Shown here one piece after another: positions 12,804 through 45,272 of a stretch of 64,000 bases of DNA. Location: assembly GCA_027451985.1 (NCBI GenBank), contig DAIDHS010000001.1:97932-161931 (forward strand), read 5' to 3'. The notes beneath the pieces are model-generated. The model worked only from the letters and a program-made list of their open reading frames with translations. It was not told the DNA's origin and did not search any database. Source of the DNA: Elusimicrobiota bacterium (lineage in GTDB: Bacteria; Elusimicrobiota; Elusimicrobia; UBA1565; UBA9628). The position numbers and the translations under genes were made by a program. The number at the start of each line of letters is the position of its first letter. Positions within the stretch are counted from its first letter, which is position 1.

Positions 12804-12812
12804 GAGAATATT

Positions 12813-15398: not shown

Positions 15399-15481
15399 TG
15401 TTTTTATTTCCAGGTTGCCGCCTTTTGCGCGGAGAGTCTCTTGGTGTGTGGACAAAAAACGGAACTCCTGCTATTCTTTTT

Positions 15482-15533
15482 GGGCCTAAAGTCCTATTGA
15501 CAGCTAGGCCCTTTGGGTCTGGCGAAATAGGAC
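15482..15533 (+). promoter_or_regulatory. nested inverted repeats (GGGCCTA/TAGGCCC and GTCCTATT/AATAGGAC) enclosing a TTGACA hexamer, upstream of the secreted-protein gene
   Basis: gggcctaaagtcctattgacagctaggccctttgggtctggcgaaataggac. The 8-mer arm is shared with the hairpin at 18278. Confidence 0.4.
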
Positions 15534-15554
15534 CGATGGGTTTACAACAGTAAT

Positions 15555-25824: not shown

Positions 25825-28800
25825 ATGCGAGGGGAATTCCGTATGGGACTAAAGGCCTGGGGAACCCTGGGCCTTTTTAATCCACCTCGGGGGGCCATTA
25901 GACTCTCTTCAGGGCAACCGCTGACCAGTATTCTATTCACATACGCGCGCATGAAAAAGGTTCTTTATAAGCTGACGGCCGTCGTGGTGACGGGAGCGCT
26001 GTTGCTCCTGACTCCGGGCATTTCCTGCTATCAAGTTCTCGCGCAGGATGTCAGCGCCGAGAGCGAGCAGAGCCAGACTCCGGTCAACATGAACTTGGGC
26101 GGGCAACTGGAAACTGTCCCGCTTGAGCAGATGGCGGTTAATCCCGCCGCAGGCGGCCTTTACCAGCTTCCCGACATTCACGTCCCGCCGTCCGAAACCC
26201 TTCCGGTTGGCGCTTCAGCAGTAAAATCCGCGGCTCAATCCGTTTCCGCGTCGGCACAGGCCGCTTCCATTCGGGCGCAATCGGTGCCCGCTGTGGAGGG
26301 TGCGCAAACCGCCGCGGCGGCTCTGCCTGAGACGCCCGCTGCCGCGGCCCTCTCTAATGGCGCCGCGTCCGTTACTCAAGGGCGCGTCGGGACCAGACAG
26401 AGATATTCCCGCGCCGCGGCTTTGTCCGCCGCTCAGGATGGGAGGCAGGCAGTTCGCCTCGGGTCTTTGGGCTGGCTTCGGAGCACCGCCGGCAAGGTGC
26501 GTAGCTGGATTAAACCCGGCGCTTCGGCCGCGAACCTCAAATTTGAGTCCAACAAGTCTTTCGACGCGGCCTACGGGAAATCGGCGGCCGTTCCGTCTGC
26601 AGGAAAATCGGAATCTTTGAGACCCGGCCGCAAGGGGCGAATCGCAAGAACCCTGGGACTTGCCGGGGCCATCGCCGTGCCCGCTGCCGCGGCCGCCATT
26701 CCGCTGCCGGCGAAGGCTGCAGCCGTCGTACACGCCGCGGCCCATTCCGGCCTCATTCATAGCGTCGGGCTGACGTTCCACGCGATTTTGACGGCCATTG
26801 GCCCCGCCGGCATCCATGCCATTTACCTCAGTATGAATGTCTTGGCCGCCGGGTTGGCCTTGCCCGAAGTCCTGCGGACGTTCCGACGCGGCAGCGCGCA
26901 TCAGGTTCCCATGGGCGAGTTGACCATGGCCGTGGTCGGCTCCGCCATCTTCGGACTCATCATCGGCCCGATGAAAGGCTATTGGGGCTGGGCCGCGCAG
27001 AATAACTATGGCGGCTTGTCCATGCTGGCCGTTCTTCCCATCGGCTGGATTTTAGGCCGCGGGGGCGTCAAAATTTTCGGCAAGCGCTTCTGGGGTCCCA
27101 TCCCGGAGCCGCAAAAAACGGAGAATCCCTCCGCGGAAAAACCGGGGCTGCTCAGGCGCATATGGAACGGCTTCAAAGATCCCGCGGTTTTGAGAACCAT
27201 CGCGGCGGCGGCGCTCATCGGAGTTGCGGCCGTTGGGTTCACCCAATTGGCCGCCGCCGTTGGCCCGGCAATTTTCCCGCCGCTCTTGAATTTCGTCGCT
27301 TCCTTGTTCCCGACTACGGCTTCGGGCATGGGTCTTTTGACGGCAGCGGTGCTTTCGGTCCCCGGCTACATCGCGCTCAAGTGGCTGCGCGGGCTTTTGA
27401 AGAGCCCGGTGTCATGGAAAAAGAAGGCGCTGCTGGGACTGCCGCTTCTGGCCGCTTTCCCGGCGATGGCCTTCTGGCTTTGGCCGATGGCCAGCGCCGG
27501 GGCCTTGCCCATGACGGCGGACAAGCTCGTTTCACTCCTGAGCGGCTTGGGCGGGGGGCTCTTCGTCTTCTTGTTCGCTCCCGAGGTCATCCGGGCGTTG
27601 ATTGTGGGTGAGGATTCCTCCAAGCACTTCAACTGGCGAACGTCGCTTATTTTCTCGGTGGCAAGCTTGGGATTCCTGATTTATTGGGGCAACCAGTATT
27701 TCGTCAACCCCGCGTCGATGGGCGTGGCCATGTCCAACATGATCCAAAACGCCATCGGGGGGCTCTTCTCGACCATCAGCTTCTTGCTGGCTTGGAAGCA
27801 CAGAAACCATAAGGTGGCGTCGGCTGCGGAGGAGAACGGTAATGCCGCCCGCGTCGCTGCGGCCGGGGAGGCCGAAAAAATCTCAAATCCCGGACAGGCG
27901 CCTCCGGATCGCTCGCCGCCCGGAGAAAGTCCGGGCGCGCCTAAAACCGAGGGCGAAAACCTCTCGCCCCACGTTTACGAAAACATCTTCGGTTTTAGAG
28001 GAATCAAGGGCCGTTCCTACGCATCCGCCGACAGCAAACTCCAGCCTCTCACCTCTCGCTCCACATCATCCCAGATCGTCGATCGAATTTCCTTTCAATT
28101 TAATATCTCTCGTGACAAAGTATTACTTATAGCATCTCGGCAAGGGATTTCGGAGGCGGCTCCGGCTGCCAGGTGGTTGGCGGTCTACGAGCGGCTCCAG
28201 AAGTCCAACTACGAGCGGTTCAAGGAGTTGGATCACGCCAAGAACGCCGGCCATGGTCTTTTTGGCGAGGCGATCCGGAAAGCCTGGGCTCGGCTGCGGG
28301 GCAAGGCGGCGCCGGACACGGCAGGGTTCCGCAGACTCGCCAACAAGACCTATGCGCCCGGCGCCAAGGGAGTGCTCCAGCGCGCGGCCGGAGTCCATCG
28401 CCTCGTAATCGGCTTCTGGATCGGCTTTGTCTACGAGTGTTTCGACTCCTTCATCCTGGGCTACTTCCGGCAGGCGATAAGCTTCCATTTCCGCCACCGG
28501 AACGAGGACTTCCTAGGCATCGCCGCTGGGCGACAAGACGAACAGGCTGGCGCCTTGTCCGAAAACGCCCTGGCCGCCGCCATCGCCGGCGTCCAGGGCC
28601 GGGGCTTGACCGCGATGGAGCGTTTCAACGCGACGGCCGTGGGGCACGCCGTGTCCGGGGCGGTCATCCGGCCGTTCGTCCACCCCCTGCTGACGTTCCT
28701 GCGCCGCCGTTTAGTCATGGCTCTCCTAAGCGCCGTCGCCATGGGGTTTTTGGGCGCCGCCGCGCCAGCCATGCCGTTTCTGTCCATTTCAGTTTTGACC

Positions 28801-31800
28801 GTTCCGTTTTTAGGGCCGCTCATTTTGCACGCGTCGCATTTCTTCTTGTTCTCGGTTGCCTCGATTCCTGGGGTAGGCCATTTCTTGCTTCCCGTCGTGA
28901 CCAAGGCGGTCAACGCCTTACTCAAGGACTTGGTGCTGGGCCCCATGCTCAACACCTACGTGCTCTCGTTCCTGATGGCGCTCACGCGGCGCCCCGTTCG
29001 GCAGTGGTTGCCCGCGCTTAAGAGCGGTTCGTTCTGGTGGGAGAGTCTAAAGACGTACTTTGGCATGATGACCATCGGCGCCGAAATCGCCGGATGCTTG
29101 AGCTATTTCGCCGGCATCGACAGCGCCATTGACTCCCACGGCTTTTATCAGCTCATCGGCAAGCACATCCATAGCCATTTCCACCTATTCCACGCGCTGG
29201 GCTCGGCGGTGGAAAGCCCCAAGGGCCAAAGCCTCATTCCCTTCGGAGGCGCCATCACCTGGGGCAACGCCCTGCTCTACCACTTCCAAAACGCCATTCA
29301 CTTCAACATTTCCAACTGGATCGCGGTCCACCTTAATCCCGCGGCGCTGGCTCAGGGGGGAGCCCACCGCGCTTTCGAGATGGGGATTTCCAATCCCCTC
29401 CAGAGGGACTTCCAGTTCAATGCCAAGGACTACTTGGCTTCACCGAAGCAGGCTAAGGCGCGCCTCAAGCAGATGGACTCCAACGCGAGCTTCTCCGAAC
29501 TGAGAAAGGAACTGGCCGCTGCCAAAGCCCGGGAACAGGCGCTAAGCTCCGCGGAGGGCCAAGCACAGGACCAGATTCTAAAACTCAAAAAACAACGCCG
29601 GCCGATTACGCCTCAGGAAAAGGCAGAGTACCAGGCGCTATTGAAACAGCTTCAACGTCAGCGGGAAAACGTCTACGCCCAGAATAAGCTCGCGGAAATG
29701 CGCGACTTGAAGGGGCGCAACCCGAAGAGCGACCTTCTCCTGAAATTAACGGCGCTGAAAAAGCAATACGCCGGCCGGCTCAACCCCAAGCCGACGGACA
29801 AGACGGACTACTGGCACGATCTTGGAGTCAAGGAGTCGCAATACGCATCGATGGCCGCCCGGCTCTCGCAGATTGTCCAACCGGCCGGTGGGAATCCGCC
29901 GGACCCAAATGGCGCGGCGCGTTCTTCGGCAGCCAGCGGGGCCGCGTTGGCGGCTGTCAGTGCCGATGCCAGCAAAGACCTTGACGCCATTAAAAGTTCG
30001 ATTCAAAAAATAAACACCAAGCGGGAGGCTTTAAAGGGCGAACTTCTGCGCAAACAGGCCCTTGAGAAGCTCATGGACGCGGAAGCCCGCCTGCGCCAAA
30101 TCGCGCTGGACCAGCGCCGGGACGGCAAGGCGATGCAGGGTTTTCATCAGAGCCTCTCGCAGTTGGACTCGGTCATGGGACTGGCGCTGTCCCAGAACGA
30201 GCTCAACGCCGCCTTGAAGGCCATCAACCAGATGCAGACGCTCATCGGCAACAAGGACGCGACCATCAACCAATCCATCAGCCAAGATCAGGCCAACCTC
30301 CAACAGATTCAAAATCTGCTTAATCAGGAGCAGCAACAGTGGCAGCAGCAGGTCACCCAGCAGGTCAATTCGGACAACCAGGCGCAGAGTGACATGAAGT
30401 CGACCCAGGGAGAAGTCGTCAGCGTCATCTCGTCAGTCCAGACGTTCAGCCAGAGCGAGAAGAACCTCATCGCGAACATCAACACTACGGACGGTGGCGC
30501 CAGCGGCAACGCGCTGACTGAGTACGCCCGCCGCCTTGCGCTCATCCAAAACGGAACCATCGCGCAGTGGGAAAATTCGGGCGGCAATCCCAACGTGACC
30601 TTCACGATGAGCCAGCTAAACGGCTACCTCCAGCAGATTTCCGCGGGCATTCAAGAGGCCCAGAACGGCCTGCAGACGCTTGAGAAGGCTCCGCAAAATT
30701 TCGCGGAAACGGCCATTCTGGAGGTACCAGGGCCGGCGGTCAATGTGCCGCCTAATCCAAGTAAGGCGGATATTCTAAACATCTTGTCCCAGCGCCAAAC
30801 GTATTGGCAGAACGAGCTCAATAGCTACGAGAGCCTGCAGACCACCATCCGGGAAATGGGCGATCCGAACAACCACGCCATGACGCAGAACGTGTTCGGC
30901 GATTCGGAGCCGCAGTCCCTGCCGGTTTGGAAGAGCCAGGAGCAGGGTGTCCTGACCCAGGATCAGACCCAGATCGGCAAGGATACCCAGCAGATGGATC
31001 AAATGGCCGCCGCCGTCAACGCGGCGTTCGGATCCCATCTTCCCATGCTTTCCGGCCAGTCGCTGACCCAACTGCAGAGCGAGGTGCAGAACTACGCGAA
31101 CGATTTGACCGCCCTCAAGATGCCCTCCGGGACGGATCCCAAAACCGTGGAAGCCAAGATGAACTTGATCAACTTGGCATATCTGGTTTCGGACTTGGGC
31201 AACCAGGTCATCAACGCGAGCGTCGCTCAGCAGACGATCACCACCATCGACGGCGCCATGTCCACGACGCTGCCCCAGGCGGCGCAGGGCATCGATGCCA
31301 TCGTGCAGATGGTCAAGAACATCCTGGCGGACGAGCAGATGGACGTGGCCTACGTCAACGGCGACCAGGAGACGCAGCAGCAGGTTTTTACCCGGAAGGA
31401 AAACCTGCTGCAGAACGAGATTCTGCCGTCCCTGCAGCAAGCGCAGAGCATGCTGCAAAATGATCTAATTCCCTTCCAGCAGCAGACGATCGCGTCCTAT
31501 CAGCAAAGCAACTCCACCACGGGCTATTACTACCTATACACGACCAAGCAGTCGTTCCTGACGCAAATCGAGAGCCTCTATAACACCACCATGCCGTGGT
31601 CCATCGAGACGTTCGGGGGGGTGTCGGGAGACAAGGCGGGTTCCCTGCAGGACGTCGCCGCGTGGAAGACCCAGCTGCAGGGCTATTTGACGGGCTACAA
31701 GGACAGCAGCGGCGTCGAGCAGCAGGGCCTTGAGCAGGCTCTACAGGAAGCCAACGACCGCATGACCACGAACTTCAAGGGCAATTCCCAGGACCCTGCG

Positions 31801-34800
31801 ACGGAAACGGTCTACGGCGAGGTGCAGCCCTACAGTCTGCCTGACAAAATCACAAAGTATACGGCGGAAATGCAGACCCGCGTTAGTCAGCTCAATCAGA
31901 ACGACGTGAAGATCAATCAGATGCTGGAGGAGATTAAGACCCTTTCCAACGGACAATACGACTTGACGCAGTATCTGTTGCCGACCGGAGTGGGGACAGA
32001 TGCCGCGAGCGTCGCCAAGATTCAGGCCCTGATCAACGCGAACACCCTGCCTAGCCTGGGATCGGCCCTGCAGCAGGTCGCCAACGAAGCGCTGGCGGCT
32101 TCCGGGAGCACCAACATCAACATCGGCGGCGGCAACGGCAGCGTGCTCTCCGGCACCCAGCCGTCTCCCACCATTTCGAACGACCAGAAAATCGCCCTTT
32201 TGGCATCGCAAATCGGCCCCTTGCTGGCGCCGGCGAGTCAGAGCGTCACCAACCCGTCGGCGGGGGACACCACGGACGCGGTCGCGCGCTACATGTACTC
32301 GAACAGCGTCATCCAGGCCGCCCAGAACGGCGAGCAGTTCATCAATTCCACCGTCTATCCCTTCGTCCACCAGGGCATCCAGACCATCAACGACGCCGTC
32401 AACGACGCGAACAACCGCATCGCCTACATCAACTCGGGCGGAACGAGCATGACTCCGCAGCAGATCTACGATCAGGAGCTGAAGATTTTCAACGAACTCG
32501 GAGGCTTCCTGGATCAGGCGCAGAATTTCTTCGGGCAAAAGAGTAGCTTTGATTCGCAGTCCTTCAGCACGATTTCGAGCATCCTCAACTACTACCAGTC
32601 CTTGGAGACCATCGACCAGTCCGGCATCACCGCGGCCCAAGGCCAGTTGCAGGCGGACCAGACCATTTCCCAGGCGCTGCAGGCGGAGCAGACCAAGCTC
32701 CAGGGCCAGCTGAGTGAAATAAACGGCTGGCTGTCTCAGCTTAACGATCCGCACGACAGCGCCCTGCGGCGCACCAGCGACGCGATTTCCGCGATCATGG
32801 ACCAGACCCGGCAGGTTTTGGAGCAGAACATCAAATTCAAGGACCTGCAGAGCCAGCTGCGCGATTCCGATCAAATCATCCAATCCCAAACGCGCGAGCT
32901 TGAGGTTAAGCAGAAGAATCTGCAGTCTCTGATCGACGATTATGAAAAGAAGGCCGAGGGTCAGCCCTTGCCGCCGGCCGTTGCCCAGCAGGTGAAGGAC
33001 CTTAAGTTCGGGCAGGGTATGTGGGAGCAGGGCGGCCCCGACGGCAGCTATGTGGTCGTTCCTAAGTCCAAGTACCCTTCCTTCGTGCGGGCTCTCCTTA
33101 AAACTATCGCGCCGCAGGATTCCAACGACGCCATCGAGCAGATCGCCCAAAACCTCATCAGCAACCCCCAGAGCCTGATGAGTCTCATCCCAGGATCCCA
33201 AGTCATGAACTTCGGGAACTCCGCTGACGGCTTTTATATGGTCTACCAGACCAACTTGTCCATTCCAAACGGCGTTTCCACGGGCAATTCGGTCACTCTG
33301 GGCAACGTCGCCAGGATTTTCGGCAATAACATAAGCGTCGAGGGTTACCAGTTCGAAAGTCCGCCGGAAAGCCCATCGGGCGGCGCCAGCAACGCGCCGT
33401 GGGGGGACAAGGGCGTGGGCGTGCAGGTCGAGTCTCTGCAGGGCAAGAATTGGGTCAACTACCTGAACATCGACCTGCACCGCTTTGGCTTGAGCGTCCC
33501 GAACAACGACACCATGGCCGCGCAGGTCCAGCAGGACCGCATTCTTGTTTTCGACGACTATGCCATGATGGCCCTCAACGGCAAGCTCTACATCGGCTTG
33601 GCAGGTTTCGGAGACGGAGCGATTCATGACCCCAGCGGCAATCCCTACTACTATGGCGGCAATTTCAAGACCGCGATTCAAATGACTCCCGTCATTAGCT
33701 TGACGGCCCAGCAACAGGAGCTCTTTGCCAACGATCCGAGAAGCTTTCTTGAGAACGTGAACCTTGATTTTACGGGCAACGACCCCAGCTTGAATCAGAA
33801 CTTCGCCATCGCCGCGCAGGGAGACAGTAAGTCCTTTTCGCGCACCAAGCTGGGCACCAGCATAGACGTGGCCCAATGGCTCGCAGGCAATAAACAGAAG
33901 AGTTCGGACGCCTTTACGCTTGACCTGTATTATGACCGAATCCATGGGACGGACGACATCTCTCAGAATGCTTTGGGGGCCTCCGTCATAAAAGGATTTA
34001 CTCTCTACCGCGATAACGGCAAACCCTGGCTCAACATCACCAACAACGCTAGCGGCGAAGCCGGGCAGAAATACGACATGGCCTCGGATGACCTGACCAT
34101 CAACCTGCCCAACGGAATCGTCTTGAGCGGCAACGGACAGATTATGGGTTCCGAACGCGCCTACTACGGGCAGATTGCGAAAAAAATGACCGATACCAGC
34201 CAAATTCAGCTGGGCTACGGTTCGCCGGTCATTGGGATGAACAACCGGCTCAATCTGACGTTCGACTCGTCCTTCAGCCTGCGGCAGATTTGGGAAACGG
34301 TCAGCCGGCAGGCGGCCGATGATCTTCAGGGCGGGCAGGCTCTTAAGCCTTTCAAGAGATCCCTGGCGGATTTCCTCTCGGCCAACTCGGGCGACACGGC
34401 CGCCGCCGAACTTAAAAAAGTCTTCGATCATTACGCGGCCCAGGAACTCGTCGATTCGGACGCCATCGGAGATTTGTCCAAGCAAATCGGGGATTTGCAG
34501 AAAGCCGGTGCTTTCATGGATAACACGAAGGTGCAGTCCGTGTTGGGATTTACCAGCGGCGCCGTGTCCAATGACCCGACGGAGTTGGCCGTCGGCGGCG
34601 GGCCTGTGGTCGGCACGGAAACGACGATGACCATCTCCCGGACGCAAAAGGCGCTCATCGCGGACAAGACGGCGACCTTAATCCGGGACGGTCTGCAGCT
34701 TCAAGACACCATGGTGGGCGCCGCGCAGAAGTTTCAGGGCGCGGTCAAAGACGTGATTGAGGCTGAGGGCTCGCTGCGCATCGCGCAGGCCGCCGAGGCC

Positions 34801-37800
34801 CGCCTGCCCGCCGGCCCGCAGCGCGACGAGGCCCTGGTTCAAGCCGATCGGGCCCAGGCGCGACTCAATGAGGCGATCATCCGCTTCAACGTCATGACCG
34901 GCCGGCCTCCTGGCGCCCAATTTCCCTTGCAGGACCTCAGCGGCGCGACGCTTGAGGACTTGATGGCGCAACTAAAGCAGACCATCACCATGCCGGCTGG
35001 GCTGGCCAGGGTCCTGCACCAGGTCGATCCGCAGAAACTGCAGGCTCGCGTGGGCTCCAATCCCTTCAACATCCTGGATAAAATTCCGTGGGTCGAACGG
35101 ATGACTTTGGGTGTCGGCACCCAGCTTCAAGACAGCATGTCGAGCCAGCTTTTGGGCGCCGGCGGATCGGTCACGCTTCCCATCTACGACCCGACCTCTA
35201 AGGCGAAGAACCATGCCTATCGGCTTGAGAACAAGGCGGCCTTGGCGGAAATTTCCCAGGTCTATGAGGATCACGCGCGAGCTGTGGAAAAGGAGCTTTT
35301 TGAAAGCGGCTTGGCTGGCGACCAAAGCAAAACTCTGGGACCGGAACTGACGCAGGCTTCCAATAATTTAAATGAAGTGTCTGCGGCGTACCGCAACGGG
35401 CTGGCCGGGCCGGCGGAGCTTCAAAAGGCGTACCAGACCTGGATGTGGTATTACGACGCCTACAACGAAGCTCTGGCGACGAAGACTTTGGCCGACGCCT
35501 CCGCGTCTTTAGCGGGGAATTTCTTGTCGCCCGGCCAAGGCTGGAAGGGCGCGGCGGGTCTCATGGGGCCGGATTCTCCGCCGCTGGATTTGACCTCCCT
35601 GCCCCAGGCCGCGTCTTTGGCGGCCGCCCATTCCGGGTCTCTGGAGGAAATGGCGGCACGGGAGCAGGCGGCCCAGGCCATGACTCAGGCTGCAAGCCAC
35701 CGGATTCAGAAGGCCTCGCTCGACTTGTCTGTGGGAGGCAATCTCGTGGCCAGCGGAACGGGGTGGATCCCCAGCATCGGCATGACGGGTTTCCCGGTCA
35801 TGCCGATTTTCAACTTCAAGTTCGAACCTTCGGACTTGCGGGACTTGGACCAAGCCCAACACAAGGCCGAATCCAAATATTATGCCGCGATCAAGGGCAA
35901 GTTGCAGGCGGACTTGGCCTTTGAAATTTATCAAAACGTTCTTACTTACGAGACGTCGATTTCGGAATTGACGCAGTTAAACGACGTCGTCATCCCTCAG
36001 TTCGCAAAGGAGGCGCAGACCGCTTCCGCCGGTCCTGCCGAGGCCGCGGCCCGGCATCGGCTGGACCAAGCGAAGCTTGAGCGCGACGGCGTTTTGTACG
36101 CCGGAGCCCAGGCGCTGGCTTCGGTTAACATGCTTTTGGGTCGGAGCCCTTCCTCCCCTCTGCGTATCGACATTTCCCCGAAGACGGCGACCTTCGATCT
36201 CCAGAAACAATATAAAGCAGAGTCACCCGCGCAGATTCAAGATAAGGTCCTCGGGGCTCAGGTTCGGATCGCACGGACGGCCGAGACCATCACGGACCGG
36301 GGAGAGAAAATCCAGGAGTTGAGCACCGAGCCTGTGTCTCTCGTTGTGCGAGCCGCCGGGCGCTTGCTCCGGACGCTTAGCGGCAACGGCTTGGGTGACC
36401 CCGATTTAAAGCAACAGGCGTTGCTCGAAGACCTCAAAGCCCAGCGGGCGCTGGAGTCTTTCCGGAAAAACGTGCCGGTTGAGCGGGCTCAATTGGAGCA
36501 GCGGCTCGCGGTCGTGACAGACGCCATCTCGAGAACTTCTCCAGAAGGCTCATCCGCCGTCCAATTTATCGATCTCCAGTCTCAAAAAATGCTTCTGCAG
36601 GCCCAGTTGGCGAGTTTGCAAGGCATCGGCACGGAGGCTCCGATAGGCCAAGCCGCTCCTGGATCCGGCGCGCCGTCCGCGATGCCCGATAATTTCGCGG
36701 ACTTGCGCAACCGCCTCGAAACGGCGGAGCAGGGCGTGACGGCGCCGCCAGACGTTCAAGGTGCCGGCTTGGCCAATCCTCAAGTATCCAAGGCGCAACC
36801 CGAGTCCTTTACCCGCTTTTACTATTTGCGCCAGACTTTAGGCAAAACCCAGGTCCACCAGGGCTACTTGGAAAGCTGGCTCGAGGCCAGGCTGCGTTTC
36901 AGCGGCACGTCGCCCAGAGAGCTTCTCCGCCTTGAAAAGCTCCGGGAAGACGAGGAGGATCAGGACTATATGGCCGCGCAGTCCGCGGCCGCAGCCAAAG
37001 GCGACATCCTGGCGGCCGACTTCGCGGCCAAAGTGCAGACTTTCCGCTACATGAAAAAACACATCGGCGCCAAAGACCAGCGCCAAACGGACGAGGCGCT
37101 CACAAGCATACGCCACGCGCTCAAATCCGACGCGGTGCAGATCGCCGCGCTTCTGGGCCTGCCATTGGATGCGGCGGGTAAAGCGGGCGCGACGGACGAA
37201 ACGATGAAGGCATTGATGGCGCTGGTGCCCGAACAAACGGAAAATGCCCAGGCTGTCGGCCAAGATCTTATCAATCGATTGAACGATCAGAGCTTTGCGC
37301 ACATCGAGCAGATGCTGTTCAACGGCCAGGCCCCGATTCCCGGGACTAATTCCGCCGCGGCTTTGAGCGACATACGGACCGACATTCTGCTTAAGCACAT
37401 GGCCTCCTCAAACATCACTCCGGTCGCGGCTTTCGGCGTCTTTCGCGGCCAGCCGGTTGAGGGACTTTTCCTCAAGACCCCTGATCCGACGACCATCGAG
37501 GCGGGGCTTGAGAGCGTGCTTTCCAAGGACATGCTGGCCAAACTCAAGGCTAGCGGAGAACTGCAGGACCTCACCCTCCATTTGAGCCAGCTCATGCAGG
37601 CCGTGCATGACGACGCGCAGACGTTGGAGAGCCAGCGGCGGCTCATTCAGTCCGCCCAGGCGCAGTACGAGAATCTGCTCGCCCTGGGAACCCCGCAGGC
37701 CTCCGCGGAACTGCAGGCCGCCCAGCACGAACTTATCCAGGCTTGGCTCGACTTCAACAACCAGGCGGCGAAATCTAAGTCCGATGTCGTCGAGCTCTCC

Positions 37801-40800
37801 GGTGAAATCCAAGCGTTGGGTTATTCTCCAAGCCAAGAGGGGACTCTCCCTTCCTCCGACATAAGTCTCGAAGCGCAGCCCGCGCGCGAACTTTCTCGGG
37901 GCATGATGGCGTACTGGGCCGAGCGAACGGCGGCTTCAGATTTCGCGGCTCAAGAGCAGAATATCTTGGACGGATTTGGCCCATTGCTTTCTCAGGATTT
38001 CAAGGAGCGATTGGCCTCGGACATTCAATCTTGGAGCCAAGCCCGCGCCGAGGCTCGGCGTCTGCGCGCGGGCGATCTCCCAGCCGTTAAGAAAGACGCG
38101 CTTTTGGTTCAAAACGATGCGACGGGCAAGCAGGAGGCCGTGGAACAGGACTTGGCCGCCTTGGTCGACGCTTTGTCCTCGGCCGGGAACTCTTCCGCGG
38201 CGGCGTCCGGCGACCTGAAGCAGTTGCTGGTCTTCTTGCAGAATGATATGGATGTCCAAGCCAACGCCACGAAGGATCAGCGCCTAAAATACAACAAGAG
38301 CGTCGAGGAACTGCGCAAGACGTATTGGGACTCGCTGCGCCCCGGCTTGCCGCCCAAGGTCGCCGGAGCGTTCACGCGGCTCGAAGACCTGCAGCATAGT
38401 CTGCGCGGAGATTGGCAGAGCCTGCTCGATAGCTATATGGAGAACGGCTCCGGCACGGAGCCGTTCATCATGAAGGACGTTCAGCTGGATGCCTATCTTA
38501 AGGACCAGCACGCCTTCAACCAGGAGATCGTGGCTCTGCTGAAGTCCGACGAAGTGCGGAAGGATCCGGCCGCTCTGGAAGGCCTTGAGTCGCTCTACGA
38601 CGTGCGCACGGCCCTGGACCAGGAGATTGCGGTCGCCCGCTACGGCCGCGGCATGGCGGCCTTGGACGCGCTCATTGAGCTCGATCAGGTGCGTCTTGAC
38701 GCGGCGCGCGGGGAGAACAAGGGGCCGGATGCGATTGCGGCGGCGGTTCAAAGCCTGCAAACCCTCGAAGACATGAAGCAACGCTGGCTCAAAGGGCAGG
38801 ACTCGCTCCAGCCCGTCTACGCCGTGGTCCCCATTCAGAGCGACGGCCAGGACATGAACGTGGTGACGGAATGGCTGACCCAGAAGGAGATCGACGCCCG
38901 CCAAGCGGACGGGCAAGATGAGCCGCTTAAGCATGGCGGGACCATCACCGAGGAGGGCGGCAAGTACTATCTTAACTCCGCGGGGGGAGGGCGATTCCTT
39001 ATTCGCTCAGGAGTGGACCAACTCCAGAGTGGCGTGGACGCCGCGCAAGCAGCGCTGGATCAGAACCAGAGCGTCATCGATTTGGGCTTTAAAGCCGATT
39101 TCGTGTCCGATAAGTTTATCGATGGCAGGCCTGTGAGCCAGTACTCGGTGCAACAAGTCTTCGGCTTGGTGCCGCCTCCCAAGGCTGACGTCGGGTCCCC
39201 GCCGCCTGAACAGCCCCTGTTCCTGTTCTATCAAGTTTCTGGCGCGCCGAGCCTGGGAACGGGGGAAAACGCCGACGCCTTCAGTCGCCTCTTGCCCGAG
39301 GCCATCGCTTTGACGGAAAGCCCGAAGGATTACGCGGTTTACGTCTACACTGGGCCGGAGAAGCTTTCTTATGACAATTTCCCGACGCTCCAGAGCCTTA
39401 AGGATTCCCCGGAATACAAGGACGTGCAGAAGCTGACCCTGACGCCGACGGGTGCCTCCGACGCCTCGATGCTGGCCCGCGGCAGGGGCCTGATCTCGCT
39501 GCGCAAAGGGTGGATCGCGCTCAAGCTCAATAGCTATGGCTTTGCGCTGGACGGCCAGAATCTCGTGAAGGTGTACCAGAGCCGCGATGAGTTCGACGCC
39601 TCGCAAGAGCGGCTGGAGAACGCCAAAGACAATCTTGCCGAGGCCCAGGCGGCTCTTAAACGAGACAGGGCGATCAAAGATGCGGAAAAAAATAAATTCG
39701 ATTCCATTGAGGCCGAGTACAATACTCAACTCGCGAAGTATCAAAAGGCGCTGAACTCCCGGAAACAGCAGTTGGAGAAAATGGCCTTAGGCGATTTGTC
39801 CCAAAAGCCCGGCGAACCCGACGCTTTTTATAAAGTCCGCGTGGAAAGCAAGGTTGACTTCCTCATCAAGGGCGACGCGAAATACCGGGCCATCATGAAA
39901 AATCTTGCTCCCTACGCAAAGAAATTCGATGCTGAGAAGCTCAAGAACGACGCGGCCCAGGCCCAGGCTGATGACGACCAGAAAGCCGTGGACAAGGCCA
40001 GTGCTGTTTTGGCCGACGCGCAGAAATGGAGCTTATACAGGACGGACAATCTCTCGCTGGAATTGGCCGGAGATGGGACGCTCGTGGCCGTCAAGGCGTC
40101 CCCGGCTTACGGTGGAAATTTGCTGAATGAAACTTTGGCCGACGAAGGTCAGAGCGTCCCCGCGAACCCCGTTCTTGTTAATGGGGCCCTTTACGCCGTC
40201 GTTCTAGATGGCGCAGGCCGCGTGGTCAAGACATTCCAAACTTCGGATGCGGTGGAGAAGGCGGCCAAGACTTGGACGATGGAAAGCGTGAGTATGAACC
40301 CGAATGGCGCCGCAGTGGAAAGCGGCGGACGAATCATGACTAACTATCGTCTGGATTATTATGAGGACCCAGCCACCAAGCTGCCAGTTGAGCTCAGCGA
40401 GCGCTACGTGCGCGATCGGGTCGAGCACGACAAACGCAGCCTCTTCTACCGCGAACATTGGGGCTTGATGCCGCAGAATTGGTTCAGCTTGGTCATGAAC
40501 GTGCCGGATCAGATCGTCGGGACTCCCATCGAACTAGCCGGACGGGATCCGAACCAGCAGCATTATCTGGGGCGCGTCAATATGAACCACAGCGAGGGCG
40601 GGGAGACGCAGCATCACGGATTTTTCCGCAACGCCCTGGGTTTCGTGGACGTGCTCGACCTGTTGCCGGACCCGGTGAAGATTTACAACGACCCCAGCCA
40701 GTTCCCCGCGCAATCCCGAATTAGTTCCCCAGTCATGCCGGGCCAGGACATCTACTCGAAGTCCCTGCGCAATCCTAAAGACGGAGAGAACGTCCATTTC

Positions 40801-41658
40801 GGCGCCAAGGCCGTGGCCCAGGGCTTGCAGTACTCTCTTGAGGATTTAACCGACGCCCAGCAACAGACGCTGAGCTATTTCCGGGGCGGCTACGAAGATT
40901 TGATCATCAGCCGCATGCGAGGGCGTGATGGGACGTATGAGGAATCCCAAAGGACGGCCCGCAGCGGCGGCGGTGCCATTGCGAGCAAGCTCGAGGATCA
41001 GGGCACCCGAGACGAGGCTTACGATCCGCTTGCGGCGGCGGACGCCCGTTCTGCCATGCATGGAGTTACGGAGACGGCCAGCCCTGATAATGTCTTGACC
41101 GAACGAGTGGAACGGCGCGTGAAAATTCAGCTTGGGGCCAAGCAGTATAATCAGGCGGCTGATGGGTTTAAGGCCTATTCCAAGGATATAAATGGTGCGA
41201 TTAGCAAAGAGAAAAAAGAGCGAGAGGGGCTTGCAGGATCTTTAAGCGCTGAGCAGGCGGCTTTAGAAAATGCTTTAGCCGCCAGGAATGACGCGCAATC
41301 GAGCCTGGATAAGACATGGTCCAAGTACCACGCGCTGGAATTGCGCATGGGGGCGGAAAAAGCTTTGGAGCAGGGAATTGTCTTGTGGCAGAAGCGCGCT
41401 AATGATTTGGCGGCGCAGTTCAAGACGGCGCAGGCTCAAGCCGACACCATGAGGAACCAGCTTCAGCAAGCCGCTGGCCTCGCCGCCGCGAGCCGCACCT
41501 CGTCCCGGCAGGCCGCCGCGACTTCGTTCCCGTCTCCGGCGCAGCCAAAGACGCCGATTTGGCCGTGGATCTTTTTCTTGGGCGGACTCGTCAGCCTTTT
41601 GGCGGCGGCGTGGGAAGCACTGCGCCATAGAATATTACGCGCCAAGCGTATTGACTAA
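25825..41658 (+). CDS. giant 5277-aa protein: N-terminal polytopic membrane domain, ~4000-aa Gln-rich helical region with a central beta-rich island, and a C-terminal TM anchor; alternative start at 25951 places the signal peptide at the N-terminus
   Basis: One uninterrupted frame of 15.8 kb. From M43 (nt 25951) the sequence is MKKVLYKLTAVVVTGALLLLTPGISCYQVLAQD. More than 15 hydrophobic helices lie in aa ~270-1150. The following ~4 kb of protein is Q/A/L/N-rich helical low complexity (QEQQQWQQQVTQQVNSDNQAQ ...). A beta-strand-like block sits at nt ~33200-34300 (GNSVTLGNVARIFGNNISVEGYQFE...TLDLYYDRIHG...TFDSSFSLRQIW). The C-terminus PIWPWIFFLGGLVSLLAAAWEALRHRILRAKRID is a tail anchor. Confidence 0.7.
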   Translation: MRGEFRMGLKAWGTLGLFNPPRGAIRLSSGQPLTSILFTYARMKKVLYKLTAVVVTGALLLLTPGISCYQVLAQDVSAESEQSQTPVNMNLGGQLETVPLEQMAVNPAAGGLYQLPDIHVPPSETLPVGASAVKSAAQSVSASAQAASIRAQSVPAVEGAQTAAAALPETPAAAALSNGAASVTQGRVGTRQRYSRAAALSAAQDGRQAVRLGSLGWLRSTAGKVRSWIKPGASAANLKFESNKSFDAAYGKSAAVPSAGKSESLRPGRKGRIARTLGLAGAIAVPAAAAAIPLPAKAAAVVHAAAHSGLIHSVGLTFHAILTAIGPAGIHAIYLSMNVLAAGLALPEVLRTFRRGSAHQVPMGELTMAVVGSAIFGLIIGPMKGYWGWAAQNNYGGLSMLAVLPIGWILGRGGVKIFGKRFWGPIPEPQKTENPSAEKPGLLRRIWNGFKDPAVLRTIAAAALIGVAAVGFTQLAAAVGPAIFPPLLNFVASLFPTTASGMGLLTAAVLSVPGYIALKWLRGLLKSPVSWKKKALLGLPLLAAFPAMAFWLWPMASAGALPMTADKLVSLLSGLGGGLFVFLFAPEVIRALIVGEDSSKHFNWRTSLIFSVASLGFLIYWGNQYFVNPASMGVAMSNMIQNAIGGLFSTISFLLAWKHRNHKVASAAEENGNAARVAAAGEAEKISNPGQAPPDRSPPGESPGAPKTEGENLSPHVYENIFGFRGIKGRSYASADSKLQPLTSRSTSSQIVDRISFQFNISRDKVLLIASRQGISEAAPAARWLAVYERLQKSNYERFKELDHAKNAGHGLFGEAIRKAWARLRGKAAPDTAGFRRLANKTYAPGAKGVLQRAAGVHRLVIGFWIGFVYECFDSFILGYFRQAISFHFRHRNEDFLGIAAGRQDEQAGALSENALAAAIAGVQGRGLTAMERFNATAVGHAVSGAVIRPFVHPLLTFLRRRLVMALLSAVAMGFLGAAAPAMPFLSISVLTVPFLGPLILHASHFFLFSVASIPGVGHFLLPVVTKAVNALLKDLVLGPMLNTYVLSFLMALTRRPVRQWLPALKSGSFWWESLKTYFGMMTIGAEIAGCLSYFAGIDSAIDSHGFYQLIGKHIHSHFHLFHALGSAVESPKGQSLIPFGGAITWGNALLYHFQNAIHFNISNWIAVHLNPAALAQGGAHRAFEMGISNPLQRDFQFNAKDYLASPKQAKARLKQMDSNASFSELRKELAAAKAREQALSSAEGQAQDQILKLKKQRRPITPQEKAEYQALLKQLQRQRENVYAQNKLAEMRDLKGRNPKSDLLLKLTALKKQYAGRLNPKPTDKTDYWHDLGVKESQYASMAARLSQIVQPAGGNPPDPNGAARSSAASGAALAAVSADASKDLDAIKSSIQKINTKREALKGELLRKQALEKLMDAEARLRQIALDQRRDGKAMQGFHQSLSQLDSVMGLALSQNELNAALKAINQMQTLIGNKDATINQSISQDQANLQQIQNLLNQEQQQWQQQVTQQVNSDNQAQSDMKSTQGEVVSVISSVQTFSQSEKNLIANINTTDGGASGNALTEYARRLALIQNGTIAQWENSGGNPNVTFTMSQLNGYLQQISAGIQEAQNGLQTLEKAPQNFAETAILEVPGPAVNVPPNPSKADILNILSQRQTYWQNELNSYESLQTTIREMGDPNNHAMTQNVFGDSEPQSLPVWKSQEQGVLTQDQTQIGKDTQQMDQMAAAVNAAFGSHLPMLSGQSLTQLQSEVQNYANDLTALKMPSGTDPKTVEAKMNLINLAYLVSDLGNQVINASVAQQTITTIDGAMSTTLPQAAQGIDAIVQMVKNILADEQMDVAYVNGDQETQQQVFTRKENLLQNEILPSLQQAQSMLQNDLIPFQQQTIASYQQSNSTTGYYYLYTTKQSFLTQIESLYNTTMPWSIETFGGVSGDKAGSLQDVAAWKTQLQGYLTGYKDSSGVEQQGLEQALQEANDRMTTNFKGNSQDPATETVYGEVQPYSLPDKITKYTAEMQTRVSQLNQNDVKINQMLEEIKTLSNGQYDLTQYLLPTGVGTDAASVAKIQALINANTLPSLGSALQQVANEALAASGSTNINIGGGNGSVLSGTQPSPTISNDQKIALLASQIGPLLAPASQSVTNPSAGDTTDAVARYMYSNSVIQAAQNGEQFINSTVYPFVHQGIQTINDAVNDANNRIAYINSGGTSMTPQQIYDQELKIFNELGGFLDQAQNFFGQKSSFDSQSFSTISSILNYYQSLETIDQSGITAAQGQLQADQTISQALQAEQTKLQGQLSEINGWLSQLNDPHDSALRRTSDAISAIMDQTRQVLEQNIKFKDLQSQLRDSDQIIQSQTRELEVKQKNLQSLIDDYEKKAEGQPLPPAVAQQVKDLKFGQGMWEQGGPDGSYVVVPKSKYPSFVRALLKTIAPQDSNDAIEQIAQNLISNPQSLMSLIPGSQVMNFGNSADGFYMVYQTNLSIPNGVSTGNSVTLGNVARIFGNNISVEGYQFESPPESPSGGASNAPWGDKGVGVQVESLQGKNWVNYLNIDLHRFGLSVPNNDTMAAQVQQDRILVFDDYAMMALNGKLYIGLAGFGDGAIHDPSGNPYYYGGNFKTAIQMTPVISLTAQQQELFANDPRSFLENVNLDFTGNDPSLNQNFAIAAQGDSKSFSRTKLGTSIDVAQWLAGNKQKSSDAFTLDLYYDRIHGTDDISQNALGASVIKGFTLYRDNGKPWLNITNNASGEAGQKYDMASDDLTINLPNGIVLSGNGQIMGSERAYYGQIAKKMTDTSQIQLGYGSPVIGMNNRLNLTFDSSFSLRQIWETVSRQAADDLQGGQALKPFKRSLADFLSANSGDTAAAELKKVFDHYAAQELVDSDAIGDLSKQIGDLQKAGAFMDNTKVQSVLGFTSGAVSNDPTELAVGGGPVVGTETTMTISRTQKALIADKTATLIRDGLQLQDTMVGAAQKFQGAVKDVIEAEGSLRIAQAAEARLPAGPQRDEALVQADRAQARLNEAIIRFNVMTGRPPGAQFPLQDLSGATLEDLMAQLKQTITMPAGLARVLHQVDPQKLQARVGSNPFNILDKIPWVERMTLGVGTQLQDSMSSQLLGAGGSVTLPIYDPTSKAKNHAYRLENKAALAEISQVYEDHARAVEKELFESGLAGDQSKTLGPELTQASNNLNEVSAAYRNGLAGPAELQKAYQTWMWYYDAYNEALATKTLADASASLAGNFLSPGQGWKGAAGLMGPDSPPLDLTSLPQAASLAAAHSGSLEEMAAREQAAQAMTQAASHRIQKASLDLSVGGNLVASGTGWIPSIGMTGFPVMPIFNFKFEPSDLRDLDQAQHKAESKYYAAIKGKLQADLAFEIYQNVLTYETSISELTQLNDVVIPQFAKEAQTASAGPAEAAARHRLDQAKLERDGVLYAGAQALASVNMLLGRSPSSPLRIDISPKTATFDLQKQYKAESPAQIQDKVLGAQVRIARTAETITDRGEKIQELSTEPVSLVVRAAGRLLRTLSGNGLGDPDLKQQALLEDLKAQRALESFRKNVPVERAQLEQRLAVVTDAISRTSPEGSSAVQFIDLQSQKMLLQAQLASLQGIGTEAPIGQAAPGSGAPSAMPDNFADLRNRLETAEQGVTAPPDVQGAGLANPQVSKAQPESFTRFYYLRQTLGKTQVHQGYLESWLEARLRFSGTSPRELLRLEKLREDEEDQDYMAAQSAAAAKGDILAADFAAKVQTFRYMKKHIGAKDQRQTDEALTSIRHALKSDAVQIAALLGLPLDAAGKAGATDETMKALMALVPEQTENAQAVGQDLINRLNDQSFAHIEQMLFNGQAPIPGTNSAAALSDIRTDILLKHMASSNITPVAAFGVFRGQPVEGLFLKTPDPTTIEAGLESVLSKDMLAKLKASGELQDLTLHLSQLMQAVHDDAQTLESQRRLIQSAQAQYENLLALGTPQASAELQAAQHELIQAWLDFNNQAAKSKSDVVELSGEIQALGYSPSQEGTLPSSDISLEAQPARELSRGMMAYWAERTAASDFAAQEQNILDGFGPLLSQDFKERLASDIQSWSQARAEARRLRAGDLPAVKKDALLVQNDATGKQEAVEQDLAALVDALSSAGNSSAAASGDLKQLLVFLQNDMDVQANATKDQRLKYNKSVEELRKTYWDSLRPGLPPKVAGAFTRLEDLQHSLRGDWQSLLDSYMENGSGTEPFIMKDVQLDAYLKDQHAFNQEIVALLKSDEVRKDPAALEGLESLYDVRTALDQEIAVARYGRGMAALDALIELDQVRLDAARGENKGPDAIAAAVQSLQTLEDMKQRWLKGQDSLQPVYAVVPIQSDGQDMNVVTEWLTQKEIDARQADGQDEPLKHGGTITEEGGKYYLNSAGGGRFLIRSGVDQLQSGVDAAQAALDQNQSVIDLGFKADFVSDKFIDGRPVSQYSVQQVFGLVPPPKADVGSPPPEQPLFLFYQVSGAPSLGTGENADAFSRLLPEAIALTESPKDYAVYVYTGPEKLSYDNFPTLQSLKDSPEYKDVQKLTLTPTGASDASMLARGRGLISLRKGWIALKLNSYGFALDGQNLVKVYQSRDEFDASQERLENAKDNLAEAQAALKRDRAIKDAEKNKFDSIEAEYNTQLAKYQKALNSRKQQLEKMALGDLSQKPGEPDAFYKVRVESKVDFLIKGDAKYRAIMKNLAPYAKKFDAEKLKNDAAQAQADDDQKAVDKASAVLADAQKWSLYRTDNLSLELAGDGTLVAVKASPAYGGNLLNETLADEGQSVPANPVLVNGALYAVVLDGAGRVVKTFQTSDAVEKAAKTWTMESVSMNPNGAAVESGGRIMTNYRLDYYEDPATKLPVELSERYVRDRVEHDKRSLFYREHWGLMPQNWFSLVMNVPDQIVGTPIELAGRDPNQQHYLGRVNMNHSEGGETQHHGFFRNALGFVDVLDLLPDPVKIYNDPSQFPAQSRISSPVMPGQDIYSKSLRNPKDGENVHFGAKAVAQGLQYSLEDLTDAQQQTLSYFRGGYEDLIISRMRGRDGTYEESQRTARSGGGAIASKLEDQGTRDEAYDPLAAADARSAMHGVTETASPDNVLTERVERRVKIQLGAKQYNQAADGFKAYSKDINGAISKEKKEREGLAGSLSAEQAALENALAARNDAQSSLDKTWSKYHALELRMGAEKALEQGIVLWQKRANDLAAQFKTAQAQADTMRNQLQQAAGLAAASRTSSRQAAATSFPSPAQPKTPIWPWIFFLGGLVSLLAAAWEALRHRILRAKRID

Positions 41659-43866: not shown

Positions 43867-45272
43867 CGGCCCTGCGGCGCGGCGCAGGGCGTACGGCGCA
43901 GGGCGCACTTGTCTGCTGTTTGCTATTGTGGCTGGGCGTCGCGGCATCCGGCAGGGAAATCTTTCAGAAAGTCGTCGTGCGCCCGGGAGACACACTGTGG
44001 GGCATCGCGCAGACGTATCTCAAGAATCCCCAAAAATGGAATGAGATCCTTAAATATAACACGCTGCCTTCCCAAGATCCCACGGCGGCTCTTCCTGGAA
44101 TGGTTCTGCGCGTGCCGGTCAATCTGATCAAAGAGAGCCTGCAGGCAGCCTACCTCGTGCAGAAGGAGAACACCGTTTATTTTAGGCGCCGCGACACTGC
44201 CGGCTGGAAATCGGCGTCGCTTCATCTGAACTTGTATCAAGGAGATTCCCTGCGCACGCTGGATAACGCGAGCGCGCGCGTGAAGTTCCTGAGCGGAGGG
44301 AACTTGGCCATGAACGCCAATTCAATGGCGATCATCCAACCGCCCAAAGCCGGCTACGACGTCAACCTAGAGCGGGGCAGCGTTTTCGTTGGGCACGCCA
44401 CGGTGGTCACAGCTTCGGCGCGCATCGAGCCAAAGACCAAGGATACGCAGTACATGGCCAAGGTCGGCGAGGACTTGAGCACCATCGTCGAGGTTTATCG
44501 CGGCCGCGCCGCGGTTTCGGCCCAAGGCCAGACCGTGGACGTCAACGCCGGCATGGCCAGCGTGGTTCCCAAGGGTTTGGCGCCCAATCTGCCTCAAAAA
44601 ATAGCCGATTTTTCCGCTCTTCAGGACCAAGCCGCGGCGTTGAACGGGATTTCCAGATCCGTCAAAGTCGCGGGGGCGTTCCCGTCGTCTCTGGGCGAAG
44701 GCGCCCTGCCGGGAAAAGCGGCGCTCCGGGACGCGTCTTCCGGCATTGCGCGGGAAGTGTCGTCACTGGAAATCGGCGTGCCCGTTTCCGGTTATCGCGT
44801 CCAAGCCTCGCGTTCGCCCGCTTTCGATAGGCTGGTGTTCAATAGGGTTTTTAACTCAGATGAGAAATTCGATCCGTCTTCGGCGAACTTGCCTCCGGGT
44901 ATTTATTGGTGGCGCATCGCCCTCATCGACTTGCTCGGCACGCAGGAAGATTTTTCATCGCCAAAGCGCTACGTCATCGGCGGGGGAGAGTCGTCCCAGC
45001 AGATCGATCCGTCCGCTCTGATGCTTTTGATCCATCCGCAAGACGGCGAAAATGTTTTTTCACCGGAATACCGCGTTTCCGGACGCCTCAAATCGTCTCA
45101 GGCGTCCGTTTCGGTGAACGGCCGCCCGGCGCGCCAGGATGAGGAAGGCAATTTTTTCGCCGATATCCGCCTGAAGGCAGGCGACAACAAGGTAGCCGTG
45201 ACGGTCCAGGATGCTTCCGGGCAGAGCGCTACGGTCGTTAGAACCGTGCGCTACTCGCCGGGCGGCGAGTAA
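43863..45272 (+). CDS. LysM-domain protein with FecR-like domain
   Basis: 469 aa. Signal/TM ALVCCLLLWLGVAASG. LysM KVVVRPGDTLWGIAQTYLKNPQKWNEILKYN. The following region (SARVKFLSGGNLAMNANSMAIIQPP...ERGSVFVGHAT) resembles a FecR sensor domain. ATGA overlap with the kinase gene stop. Confidence 0.65.
   Translation: MTALRRGAGRTAQGALVCCLLLWLGVAASGREIFQKVVVRPGDTLWGIAQTYLKNPQKWNEILKYNTLPSQDPTAALPGMVLRVPVNLIKESLQAAYLVQKENTVYFRRRDTAGWKSASLHLNLYQGDSLRTLDNASARVKFLSGGNLAMNANSMAIIQPPKAGYDVNLERGSVFVGHATVVTASARIEPKTKDTQYMAKVGEDLSTIVEVYRGRAAVSAQGQTVDVNAGMASVVPKGLAPNLPQKIADFSALQDQAAALNGISRSVKVAGAFPSSLGEGALPGKAALRDASSGIAREVSSLEIGVPVSGYRVQASRSPAFDRLVFNRVFNSDEKFDPSSANLPPGIYWWRIALIDLLGTQEDFSSPKRYVIGGGESSQQIDPSALMLLIHPQDGENVFSPEYRVSGRLKSSQASVSVNGRPARQDEEGNFFADIRLKAGDNKVAVTVQDASGQSATVVRTVRYSPGGE

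Follow-up and report, generated by a model that had tools for sequence, protein, structure and literature searches.

A giant Elusimicrobiota protein with a TolC-like module inside its chain: candidate single-chain connection between inner and outer membrane

What could a bacterium of an uncultured lineage do with one polypeptide of more than five thousand residues, the two ends of which carry membrane segments? The question is raised by a 15.8-kb gene in a stretch of 64,000 nucleotides (hereafter the window; contig DAIDHS010000001.1, positions 97,932 to 161,931 of the forward strand) from the Elusimicrobiota bacterium assembly GCA_027451985.1, a metagenome-assembled genome of 2.4 Mb in 107 contigs that derives from mine-drainage metagenomes. 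The product of the gene, hereafter the giant, is predicted to carry in its centre a beta-rich stretch of outer-membrane type followed by four tandem units related to the TolC family of outer-membrane ducts. The best-supported reading, to which we assign somewhat less than an even chance, is that the giant and the ATPase encoded upstream of it (the partner) form a trans-envelope, ATPase-assisted export duct, the duct itself being made from one chain.

The gene is real and under constraint. It is a single open reading frame (ORF) without interruption, as a preliminary description of this DNA, made from the letters alone, had stated in proposing one gene for 5,277 aa; the true start is probably the ATG at 25951, which gives 5,235 aa. 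The assembly is of low coverage (about 6x), and the gene is not spanned by any one contig of the public runs, which would speak for an artefact of assembly or gene calling that joined several genes. Such an artefact is nevertheless very unlikely and is given next to no weight, because collinear, stop-free orthologues are found in dozens of independent metagenome-assembled genomes and in a complete genome; more than 40 independent assemblies, a complete chromosome among them, show the same end-to-end architecture and no internal stops. Likewise, the public contigs of four independent sequencing runs cover the gene, and none of the four shows an indel or a joint, although at low depth. Among the sequencing runs that carry the sequence no RNA run is listed. 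Antisense ORFs of up to 968 aa overlap the gene (for example 31741-34647 on the minus strand); long antisense frames are expected in coding DNA of 58-60% GC, and nothing suggests that they are genes.

The giant belongs to a narrowly distributed family. Among 41 genomes (40 related ones and the window's own) a query from the N-terminal part was matched in 35 and a central query in 36, and orthologues occur in most genomes of one Elusimicrobiota order. In the related genomes these are open frames of 4.6-5.8 kaa without stops, collinear with the giant from aa ~690 to ~5270 at 32-37% identity (BLAST); the complete chromosome CP096137.1 harbours two copies. A scan of one genome per species confirmed 102 relatives, the informative titles of which all read Elusimicrobia or Elusimicrobiota. 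Exhaustive searching of 1.84 billion representative proteins with an HMM returned just 120 matches, nearly all of them giants or their fragments. In a sample of 151 genomes from the phylum the family was present only in the window's order (6/6) and in one other family (2/2); two large groups of lineages with small genomes gave no match (0/45 and 0/44). Database entries name the members 'hypothetical protein'; no description of the family was found in the literature on giant proteins of Elusimicrobia or on TolC-like domains in giants, nor was a characterised example of a huge Elusimicrobiota protein.

What the protein might be is indicated by its centre. AlphaFold2 models were built for aa 690-1889 (42 sequences) and for aa 2420-3600 (66-sequence alignment), the latter with a mean pLDDT of 67 and a pTM of 0.57. 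In this central model each of the four TolC-like units consists of a beta-hairpin and a long helical hairpin with pLDDT values of 80-95, and aa 2901-3600, previously counted as part of a long helix, are instead predicted to form a TolC-like membrane module. The top Foldseek matches in the PDB belong exclusively to the TolC family, namely CusC, SilC, OprM, TolC and CmeC (probability 1.0, E values from 2e-5, TM-scores of 0.5-0.61 by target). With VIA-align, aa 2945-3441 superpose on near-whole protomers of these outer-membrane factors (OMFs), covering their residues 58-449 (Z 17-18, rmsd 3.6-3.8 A over ~330 residues), and in a second register aa 3255-3600 superpose on OprN with Z 17.5. As whole protomers are matched in two registers, the chain as modelled therefore holds two tandem equivalents of a TolC protomer. 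The next fold class in the exhaustive VIA search follows only at Z 11, and ESM Atlas features as well as overall shape lead to OEP clusters, with a TM-score of 0.62 to one of them.

The likeness extends to sequence profiles. Alignment with hhalign to the OEP proteins of the same genome reaches 73-84.5% probability (E 7e-6 to 3e-5) over aa 2990-3525 only, and a sliding hhalign scan detected no OEP-like repeats outside this range. When an HMM of the region is searched, its weakest matches (library-wide E 4e-6 to 7e-4) turn out to be true members of Pfam OEP, and the distant family member P0060 itself passes the Pfam OEP model with 28.7 bits versus a threshold of 22. Units 1 and 3 can be aligned to one another (E 1.6e-5), a result compatible with a tandem duplication. 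phmmer and profile searches of PDB sequences retrieved nothing for the central region, Pfam applied to four overlapping pieces of the giant gave only sub-threshold noise, and a six-frame OEP search of the genome yielded 29 matches and about 14 ordinary OEP genes, with none of the matches within the giant gene.

The beta-rich block that had been noticed at nt ~33200-34300 is confirmed at aa ~2471-2818: it displays a period-2 hydrophobicity signal (aa 2500-2800), is modelled as ~21 long strands (DSSP) and is, with 50-58% identity, the most conserved part of the family alignment together with the block around aa 4880-5010. The model also predicts what had been voiced as a possibility, that this island is a segment of an outer-membrane barrel, although the resemblance to known barrels is weak (Z about 10-11 for the best ones). 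Since the alignments to barrels in the exhaustive VIA search include the island as well as the TolC-type hairpins, the strands of both are suggested to be modelled in one sheet.

The barrel matches of the centre (Z 9-11) comprise PelB (Z 11.1), BcsC (Z 10) and AlgE (Z 9.8), which are the best outside the TolC family, together with BamA, FhaC, CdiB and Occ porins. An exopolysaccharide export porin with a periplasmic scaffold, like PelB, BcsC or AlgE, can therefore be proposed as an alternative, and elsewhere the protein P0095 (6,932 aa) indeed links a beta-island-like stretch (aa 574-790, E 3e-16) to a Glucan_synthase/GT2 region near aa 5645-6130. However, the Z scores are no better than those of BamA, FhaC and porins, the model is of low confidence in this part, and the conserved gene cluster comes without a glycosyltransferase or TPR scaffold, which leaves a polysaccharide porin quite improbable.

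How would such a centre be placed in the cell? Judged from its genes the host is a diderm, since these include BamA and 14 ordinary OEP genes; six peptidoglycan-binding proteins of the OmpA family are encoded as well. The termini of TolC-family proteins and of beta barrels face the periplasm and a basic tail marks the cytoplasmic side, so that both arms of the giant would be periplasmic. As both ends carry membrane segments and the centre is predicted to reside in the outer membrane, a path of the chain from the inner membrane through the periplasm to the outer membrane, and back through the periplasm to the inner membrane, is self-consistent, and the number of transmembrane segments before the N-arm is even in a hydropathy scan. 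The idea of the preliminary description that the protein is a tether or conduit gains support in so far as this path, with its conserved end anchors and predicted outer-membrane centre, fits it.

The two ends deserve closer consideration. A similar signal peptide stands at the start of every family member, in agreement with the signal-like segment noted before at nt 25951; it ends in the family motif (S/T)-P-G-x3-Y-x-(A/L)-A, which is the same in orthologues and in anchor-less forms. On the Kyte-Doolittle scale ~12-13 hydrophobic helices precede aa 1100, in two N-terminal clusters of about six each, rather than the more than 15 that had been claimed for the first ~1150 aa. Residues 1-689 are found only within the genus, apart from a faint resemblance in a single further genus (BLAST, tblastn, alignment). 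That this extension (aa 1-690) is a fused separate gene was considered and rejected, as tblastn did not reproduce the finding and only weak HMMER matches to ORFs of ~520 aa were obtained. The adjoining membrane domain (aa 690-1250) is 31-37% identical across the order and is modelled as all-helical with pLDDT 60-88; stand-alone relatives of it were not found, only fragments of the same family.

At the other end, a hydrophobic segment at aa 5245-5266 (Kyte-Doolittle) followed by a basic tail substantiates the tail anchor that had been recognised earlier, and every complete orthologue closes with W-x-W, ~20 hydrophobic residues and an Arg-rich tail. Only 3 of the 5,776 frames of at least 150 aa in the genome, the giant included, end in W-x-W, a transmembrane segment and a basic tail, and this rarity makes an anchor more likely than a sorting signal of the sortase/exosortase type. 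A similar end, W-x-W with a transmembrane segment and an RRRK tail, was observed in one other frame of the genome, of 366 aa, at G000:C24:28682 (+).

Between the ends and the centre extend the arms. The earlier picture of ~4000 aa of Gln-rich helix holds for aa 1251-2450 only, where Gln reaches 13% as compared with 7-8% elsewhere in the giant and where a period-3.6 hydrophobicity signal is present. The model of aa 690-1889 (mean pLDDT 69) is all-helical, with the membrane domain at aa ~720-1250 and bundles thereafter, which are confident from aa ~1500 (pLDDT 80-93). Its longest helix comprises 102 aa (aa 1455-1556), and conserved Pro and Gly residues leave no uninterrupted stretch of more than 123 aa anywhere in the giant; instead of a coiled coil of hundreds of nm, as first imagined, the arms look like stacks of bundles of 5-15 nm. 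Searches with this model in Foldseek, VIA and the Atlas returned only generic helical bundles at Z up to 10.7 (ClyA-family toxins, PS2 S-layer, HlyD and designed bundles), matches that are uninformative for helical proteins and by which the membrane domain was effectively not probed. In the C-arm, globular parts are likely at aa ~4350-4500 and at 4760-5060, and the sequence leading up to the anchor resembles a coiled coil. An ESM Atlas feature search with aa 1260-2420 and aa 4300-5277 gave no usable match, PDB profile searches with aa 3600-5277 only weak coiled-coil matches, and Pfam on all C-terminal orthologue pieces nothing; over the giant, Pfam detected no adhesin, dockerin, glycosidase, peptidase, SLH, OmpA or LysM domain.

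Attention turns next to the partner, which in 12 of the 16 loci examined precedes the giant on the same strand. It possesses a signal peptide, a Walker A motif (ETGGGKT) and a Walker B motif (DEYD), and matches Pfam ResIII above the cut-off (E 7e-6); four of five close orthologues match ResIII and two of the five DEAD, and ResIII is found also in more distant ones. On the evidence of its sequence it is a superfamily 2 (SF2) ATPase of the ResIII/DEAD type. The SecA-like motor which the preliminary description had seen in this neighbour found no backing from Pfam or hhalign: alignment to SecA and to the SecA part of the distant relative P0092 reaches 1.2-1.6% probability, and a six-frame search with SecA_DEAD (PF07517) matches only the canonical SecA (C4) and nothing in the window.

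The far end of the partner provides a hint to what may be transported. Within the genus its identity stops at aa ~2323, with unrelated C-termini in the window and in G001/P0128, and in the same-genus relatives G001, G003 and P0128 the last ~135 aa are a CdiA_C domain (E 2e-18 in P0128). By sequence, the C-terminus is exchangeable within the window's genus. In these relatives the CdiA_C-bearing partner is followed after 5 bp by a 138-aa gene with a weak match to SitI3 immunity proteins and then by the giant, while the window's own module has no Pfam match (aa 2262-2460) and no homologue was found. CdiA_C also terminates other large ORFs (5,648, 1,426 and 1,634 aa) in related genera, at G004:C50:51411-51641, G008:C45:19798-20013, G006:C40:5650-5880 and other sites, and polymorphic toxins seem to be common in this Elusimicrobiota family.

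An SF2 ATPase with a variable, nuclease-type C-terminal effector next to a small immunity-like gene might also be expected of an envelope-associated anti-phage or conflict system, in which the partner would detect an invader and release its effector, the giant serving as a sensor in the envelope, and the weak Pfam matches to VMAP-M1 (E 0.004) and EAD11 (E 5e-4) would fit. Both matches, however, fall short of the Pfam thresholds, the effector occurs in a single genus only, and we know of no defence system with such an envelope component; a conflict system is considered highly improbable.

Combining centre, topology and partner, the export duct might work as follows. The giant would be exported by the Sec system and span the whole envelope as one chain, its N-terminal domain and tail anchor residing in the inner membrane and its centre being inserted into the outer membrane by the BAM machinery. 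The partner would be a membrane protein with a cytoplasmic SF2 ATPase that powers the duct together with the giant, by analogy with a tripartite TolC-dependent exporter whose adaptor and outer-membrane duct had been merged into one polypeptide. That the toxin module is exchangeable in the window's genus suggests the partner, or its C-terminus, as cargo. A complex prediction of giant aa 690-1259 with partner aa 830-1160 provided neither support nor evidence against. The most far-reaching version, a new kind of secretion system in which a single-chain duct leads from an inner-membrane base to a hybrid TolC/barrel pore and exports the partner or its toxin for interbacterial competition, is doubtful at present.

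A number of observations weigh against the export duct. The strands of the island are modelled with pLDDT of just 40-74, and Pfam OEP (PF02321) has no match in the giant at E up to 0.1. Canonical TolC is a homotrimer of 3 x 2 repeats with a 12-strand barrel and a 12-helix tunnel; the four repeats per chain of the monomer model do not fit this six-repeat arrangement. The toxin module is confined to one genus, the partners of other genera having conserved, non-toxin ends, and in the window there is no immunity gene at the expected place, where just 88-214 nt lie between the partner's stop at 25736 and the possible starts of the giant and leave no room for one. A few genomes of the window's order that are fairly complete yielded no member of the giant family. 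Shorter forms of 3.85-4.2 kaa retain the signal peptide but have neither the N-terminal membrane domain nor the tail anchor; these include paralogues, and in the relative G009 such a form is apparently the sole copy, with conserved neighbours and partner retained. The existence of anchor-less forms means that inner-membrane anchoring is dispensable in some lineages.

Some of the same facts bear on the main competing explanation, a structural tether between inner and outer membrane, or a periplasmic spacer that sets the distance of the membranes, where the TolC-like and barrel parts only hold the chain in the outer membrane and no substrate passes. Terminal membrane segments combined with an outer-membrane module in mid-chain, long conserved helical arms and the conserved cell-wall-related neighbours (LysM/Glucodextran_B and SLH-like Glucodextran_C) are all compatible with this explanation, which we regard as possible but clearly on the unlikely side. 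A tether would not need an ATPase partner, yet the partner is conserved, and the toxin module on it is left unexplained. Moreover, the genome already has its six peptidoglycan-binding OmpA-family proteins, the giant family is present in just 9 of the 151 genomes of the phylum sample and was not found in some near-complete genomes of the order, and anchor-less forms exist.

A further explanation emerges from comparison with the giants of Omnitrophota, huge membrane proteins likewise from uncultured small-celled bacteria, with many transmembrane segments and divergent SF2/SecA ATPases (SecA_DEAD), for which self-export has been proposed (West-Roberts et al., 2023; 10.1101/2023.11.21.568195). The giant might accordingly be a surface adhesin or prey-attack protein with its arms outside the cell, exported by the ATPase. 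Elusimicrobia are listed among the phyla rich in proteins of more than 5,000 aa (PMC11573180), and in the distant relative P0092 (>2,503 aa) SecA_DEAD, SecA_PP_bind, P-loop_SecA and Peptidase_M23 domains are joined to a homologue of giant aa 2293-2727, an arrangement that recalls the divergent SecA domains of the Omnitrophota giants (10.1101/2023.11.21.568195). But the giant is far shorter than those and has no SecA, enzyme or adhesin domain, dockerins, glycosidases and peptidases included; the termini of TolC-family proteins are periplasmic and the basic C-terminal tail fits a stop-transfer anchor in the inner membrane. The study of the Omnitrophota giants reports no TolC-like module (10.1101/2023.11.21.568195). 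A surface adhesin is deemed unlikely. The earlier speculation about a translocation channel fares in a mixed way, as the neighbour on which it was built is not detectably SecA-like, while the SecA-fused P0092 and the exchangeable toxin on the partner support it indirectly.

Table 1. Features of the giant gene, its partner and neighbours in the window, and of loci in relatives (positions in nucleotides; residues of the respective protein in brackets)
Feature	Position	Strand	Basis and remarks
Giant gene	25825..41658	+	5,277 aa from first ATG; ORF list and translation, orthologue collinearity
Sec-type signal peptide	25951..26043 (aa 43-73)	+	Hydropathy and family motif; cleavage putative
Lineage-specific N-terminal extension, ~6 hydrophobic helices	26044..27891 (aa 74-689)	+	Alignment occupancy, BLAST, tblastn, hydropathy
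Conserved helical membrane domain, ~6 transmembrane segments between aa 860-1100	27892..29574 (aa 690-1250)	+	Alignment, AlphaFold, hydropathy
N-arm, Gln/Asn-rich helical bundles	29575..33174 (aa 1251-2450)	+	Composition, periodicity, AlphaFold; periplasmic location predicted
Beta island, predicted outer-membrane barrel segment	33235..34278 (aa 2471-2818)	+	DSSP of model, barrel matches, conservation
TolC-like module, four units	34525..36624 (aa 2901-3600)	+	Foldseek, VIA, hhalign, HMM, internal repeat
C-arm	36625..41544 (aa 3601-5240)	+	Conserved; mostly helix-prone by sequence
Highly conserved block, ~51% identity	40462..40854 (aa ~4880-5010)	+	Family alignment
Tail anchor: W-x-W, ~20 hydrophobic residues, basic tail	41551..41655 (aa 5243-5277)	+	Hydropathy; predicted N-out/C-in
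Conserved partner, 2,460 aa	18354..25736	+	Synteny, Pfam
Partner hydrophobic region, Gly/Ala-rich	21012-21743 (aa ~887-1130)	+	
Partner SF2 ATPase	23271-25103 (aa ~1640-2250)	+	Pfam ResIII/DEAD, Walker motifs
Partner variable C-terminal module, family not recognised	25320..25733 (aa 2323-2460)	+	Identity break at junction
Sensor histidine kinase (dCache-HAMP-PAS-HisKA-HATPase)	41695..43866	+	Pfam; downstream of giant in 17 loci
LysM and Glucodextran_B-like protein	43863..45272	+	Pfam; conserved neighbour in 12 loci
Protein with SLH-like Glucodextran_C binding module	45274-47082	-	Pfam
138-aa SitI3-like ORF in same-genus relatives	L147 11732-12148; L128 11480-11896		
P0092	L145 10001-17511		GCA_022013205.1, JAKLQT010000110.1; contig ends inside gene

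The wider gene neighbourhood (Table 1) contains, besides the partner, two proteins with glucodextranase-type modules that flank the histidine kinase region and may bind the cell wall; no Pfam match to HlyD, ABC or RND components was found among the neighbours of the giant. Four ORFs (542, 363, 861 and 872 aa; window 9955-18173, plus strand) precede the partner and have no Pfam or NCBIfam match; a single hydrophobic segment occurs at the N-terminus of three of them, the 542-aa product is rich in Gly, Ser and Ala and closes with a Gly-Ser tail, and two or three of the four have homologues upstream of the giant in other genera. In 11 of 15 loci of relatives a gene of ~300 aa for a Y1-transposase-like (RAYT-like) protein with a C-terminal HTH lies directly upstream of the giant (loci L129-L140; in L130 on the reverse strand, 10933-11922 oriented); it is absent in the window's genus. 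Divergent from the giant's cluster, the minus strand (2673-9627) encodes MotB/OmpA (2673-3428), MotA/ExbB (3442-4242), a 476-aa ORF, a FliG_M/FliG_C protein with TPR (5960-7957) and a PorV/PorQ-like protein with TPR (8005-9627). The presence of both a stator and a FliG-like protein is surprising, as the phylum is not known for flagella.

With respect to known systems, the closest likeness is to the TolC/OMF family (PF02321), with which the giant shares whole-protomer superposition, the repeat of hairpin and helical hairpin, and homology at the profile level. In contrast to TolC, which stands alone with ~450 aa, the module is part of a 5,277-aa chain, holds two protomer equivalents in tandem and is preceded by ~21 extra strands; moreover, a lipobox form and adjacent MFP, ABC or RND genes are lacking and the giant stays below the Pfam OEP threshold. 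Tripartite TolC-dependent export (type I, RND/ABC/MFS) likewise combines an inner-membrane energiser, here the ATPase partner, with periplasmic helices and a TolC-type duct, but in the giant a single polypeptide supplies both the periplasmic section and the duct, with a predicted inner-membrane anchor at either end, and the ATPase is SF2 (ResIII/DEAD-like) rather than ABC. The matches of the giant to HlyD-like proteins are a generic coiled-coil resemblance (Z ~8).

The partner resembles polymorphic toxin systems of the CdiA-CT type in having a conserved body, a sharp junction and an exchangeable C-terminus. It differs from them in the lack of FHA, Rhs, LXG and PAAR modules and the possession of a signal peptide, a hydrophobic region and an SF2 ATPase; in addition, the window's own C-terminal domain belongs to no known family and is not followed by an immunity gene. 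A last comparison concerns the outer-membrane tethers OmpM and SlpA (Negativicutes, Deinococcus) and Omp-alpha (Thermotoga), proteins of 400-1,200 aa that combine outer-membrane attachment and a coiled-coil stalk with SLH-mediated binding of peptidoglycan. The giant is similar in that an outer-membrane beta barrel is predicted to be joined to long periplasmic helices, but no SLH or peptidoglycan-binding domain was found in it and its chain ends in membrane anchors. To our knowledge, no protein has been described whose two ends are integrated in the inner membrane and whose middle resides in the outer one.

Cumulatively, the TolC-like module is of a known kind, and the architecture as a whole, if the topology is right, has no known counterpart. 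Should the topology hold, TolC-type ducts can be built as one chain together with a periplasmic spacer and a membrane base, a new way of bridging the diderm envelope. As ~85% of the giant is without a recognisable relative outside its own family, solving its structure would add new folds or arrangements. The combination of an SF2 ATPase that carries a swappable toxin with a relative fused to SecA ties the family to the question of how the giant proteins of uncultured bacteria are exported and used, and the giant offers a testable handle on the roles of huge proteins in Elusimicrobiota.

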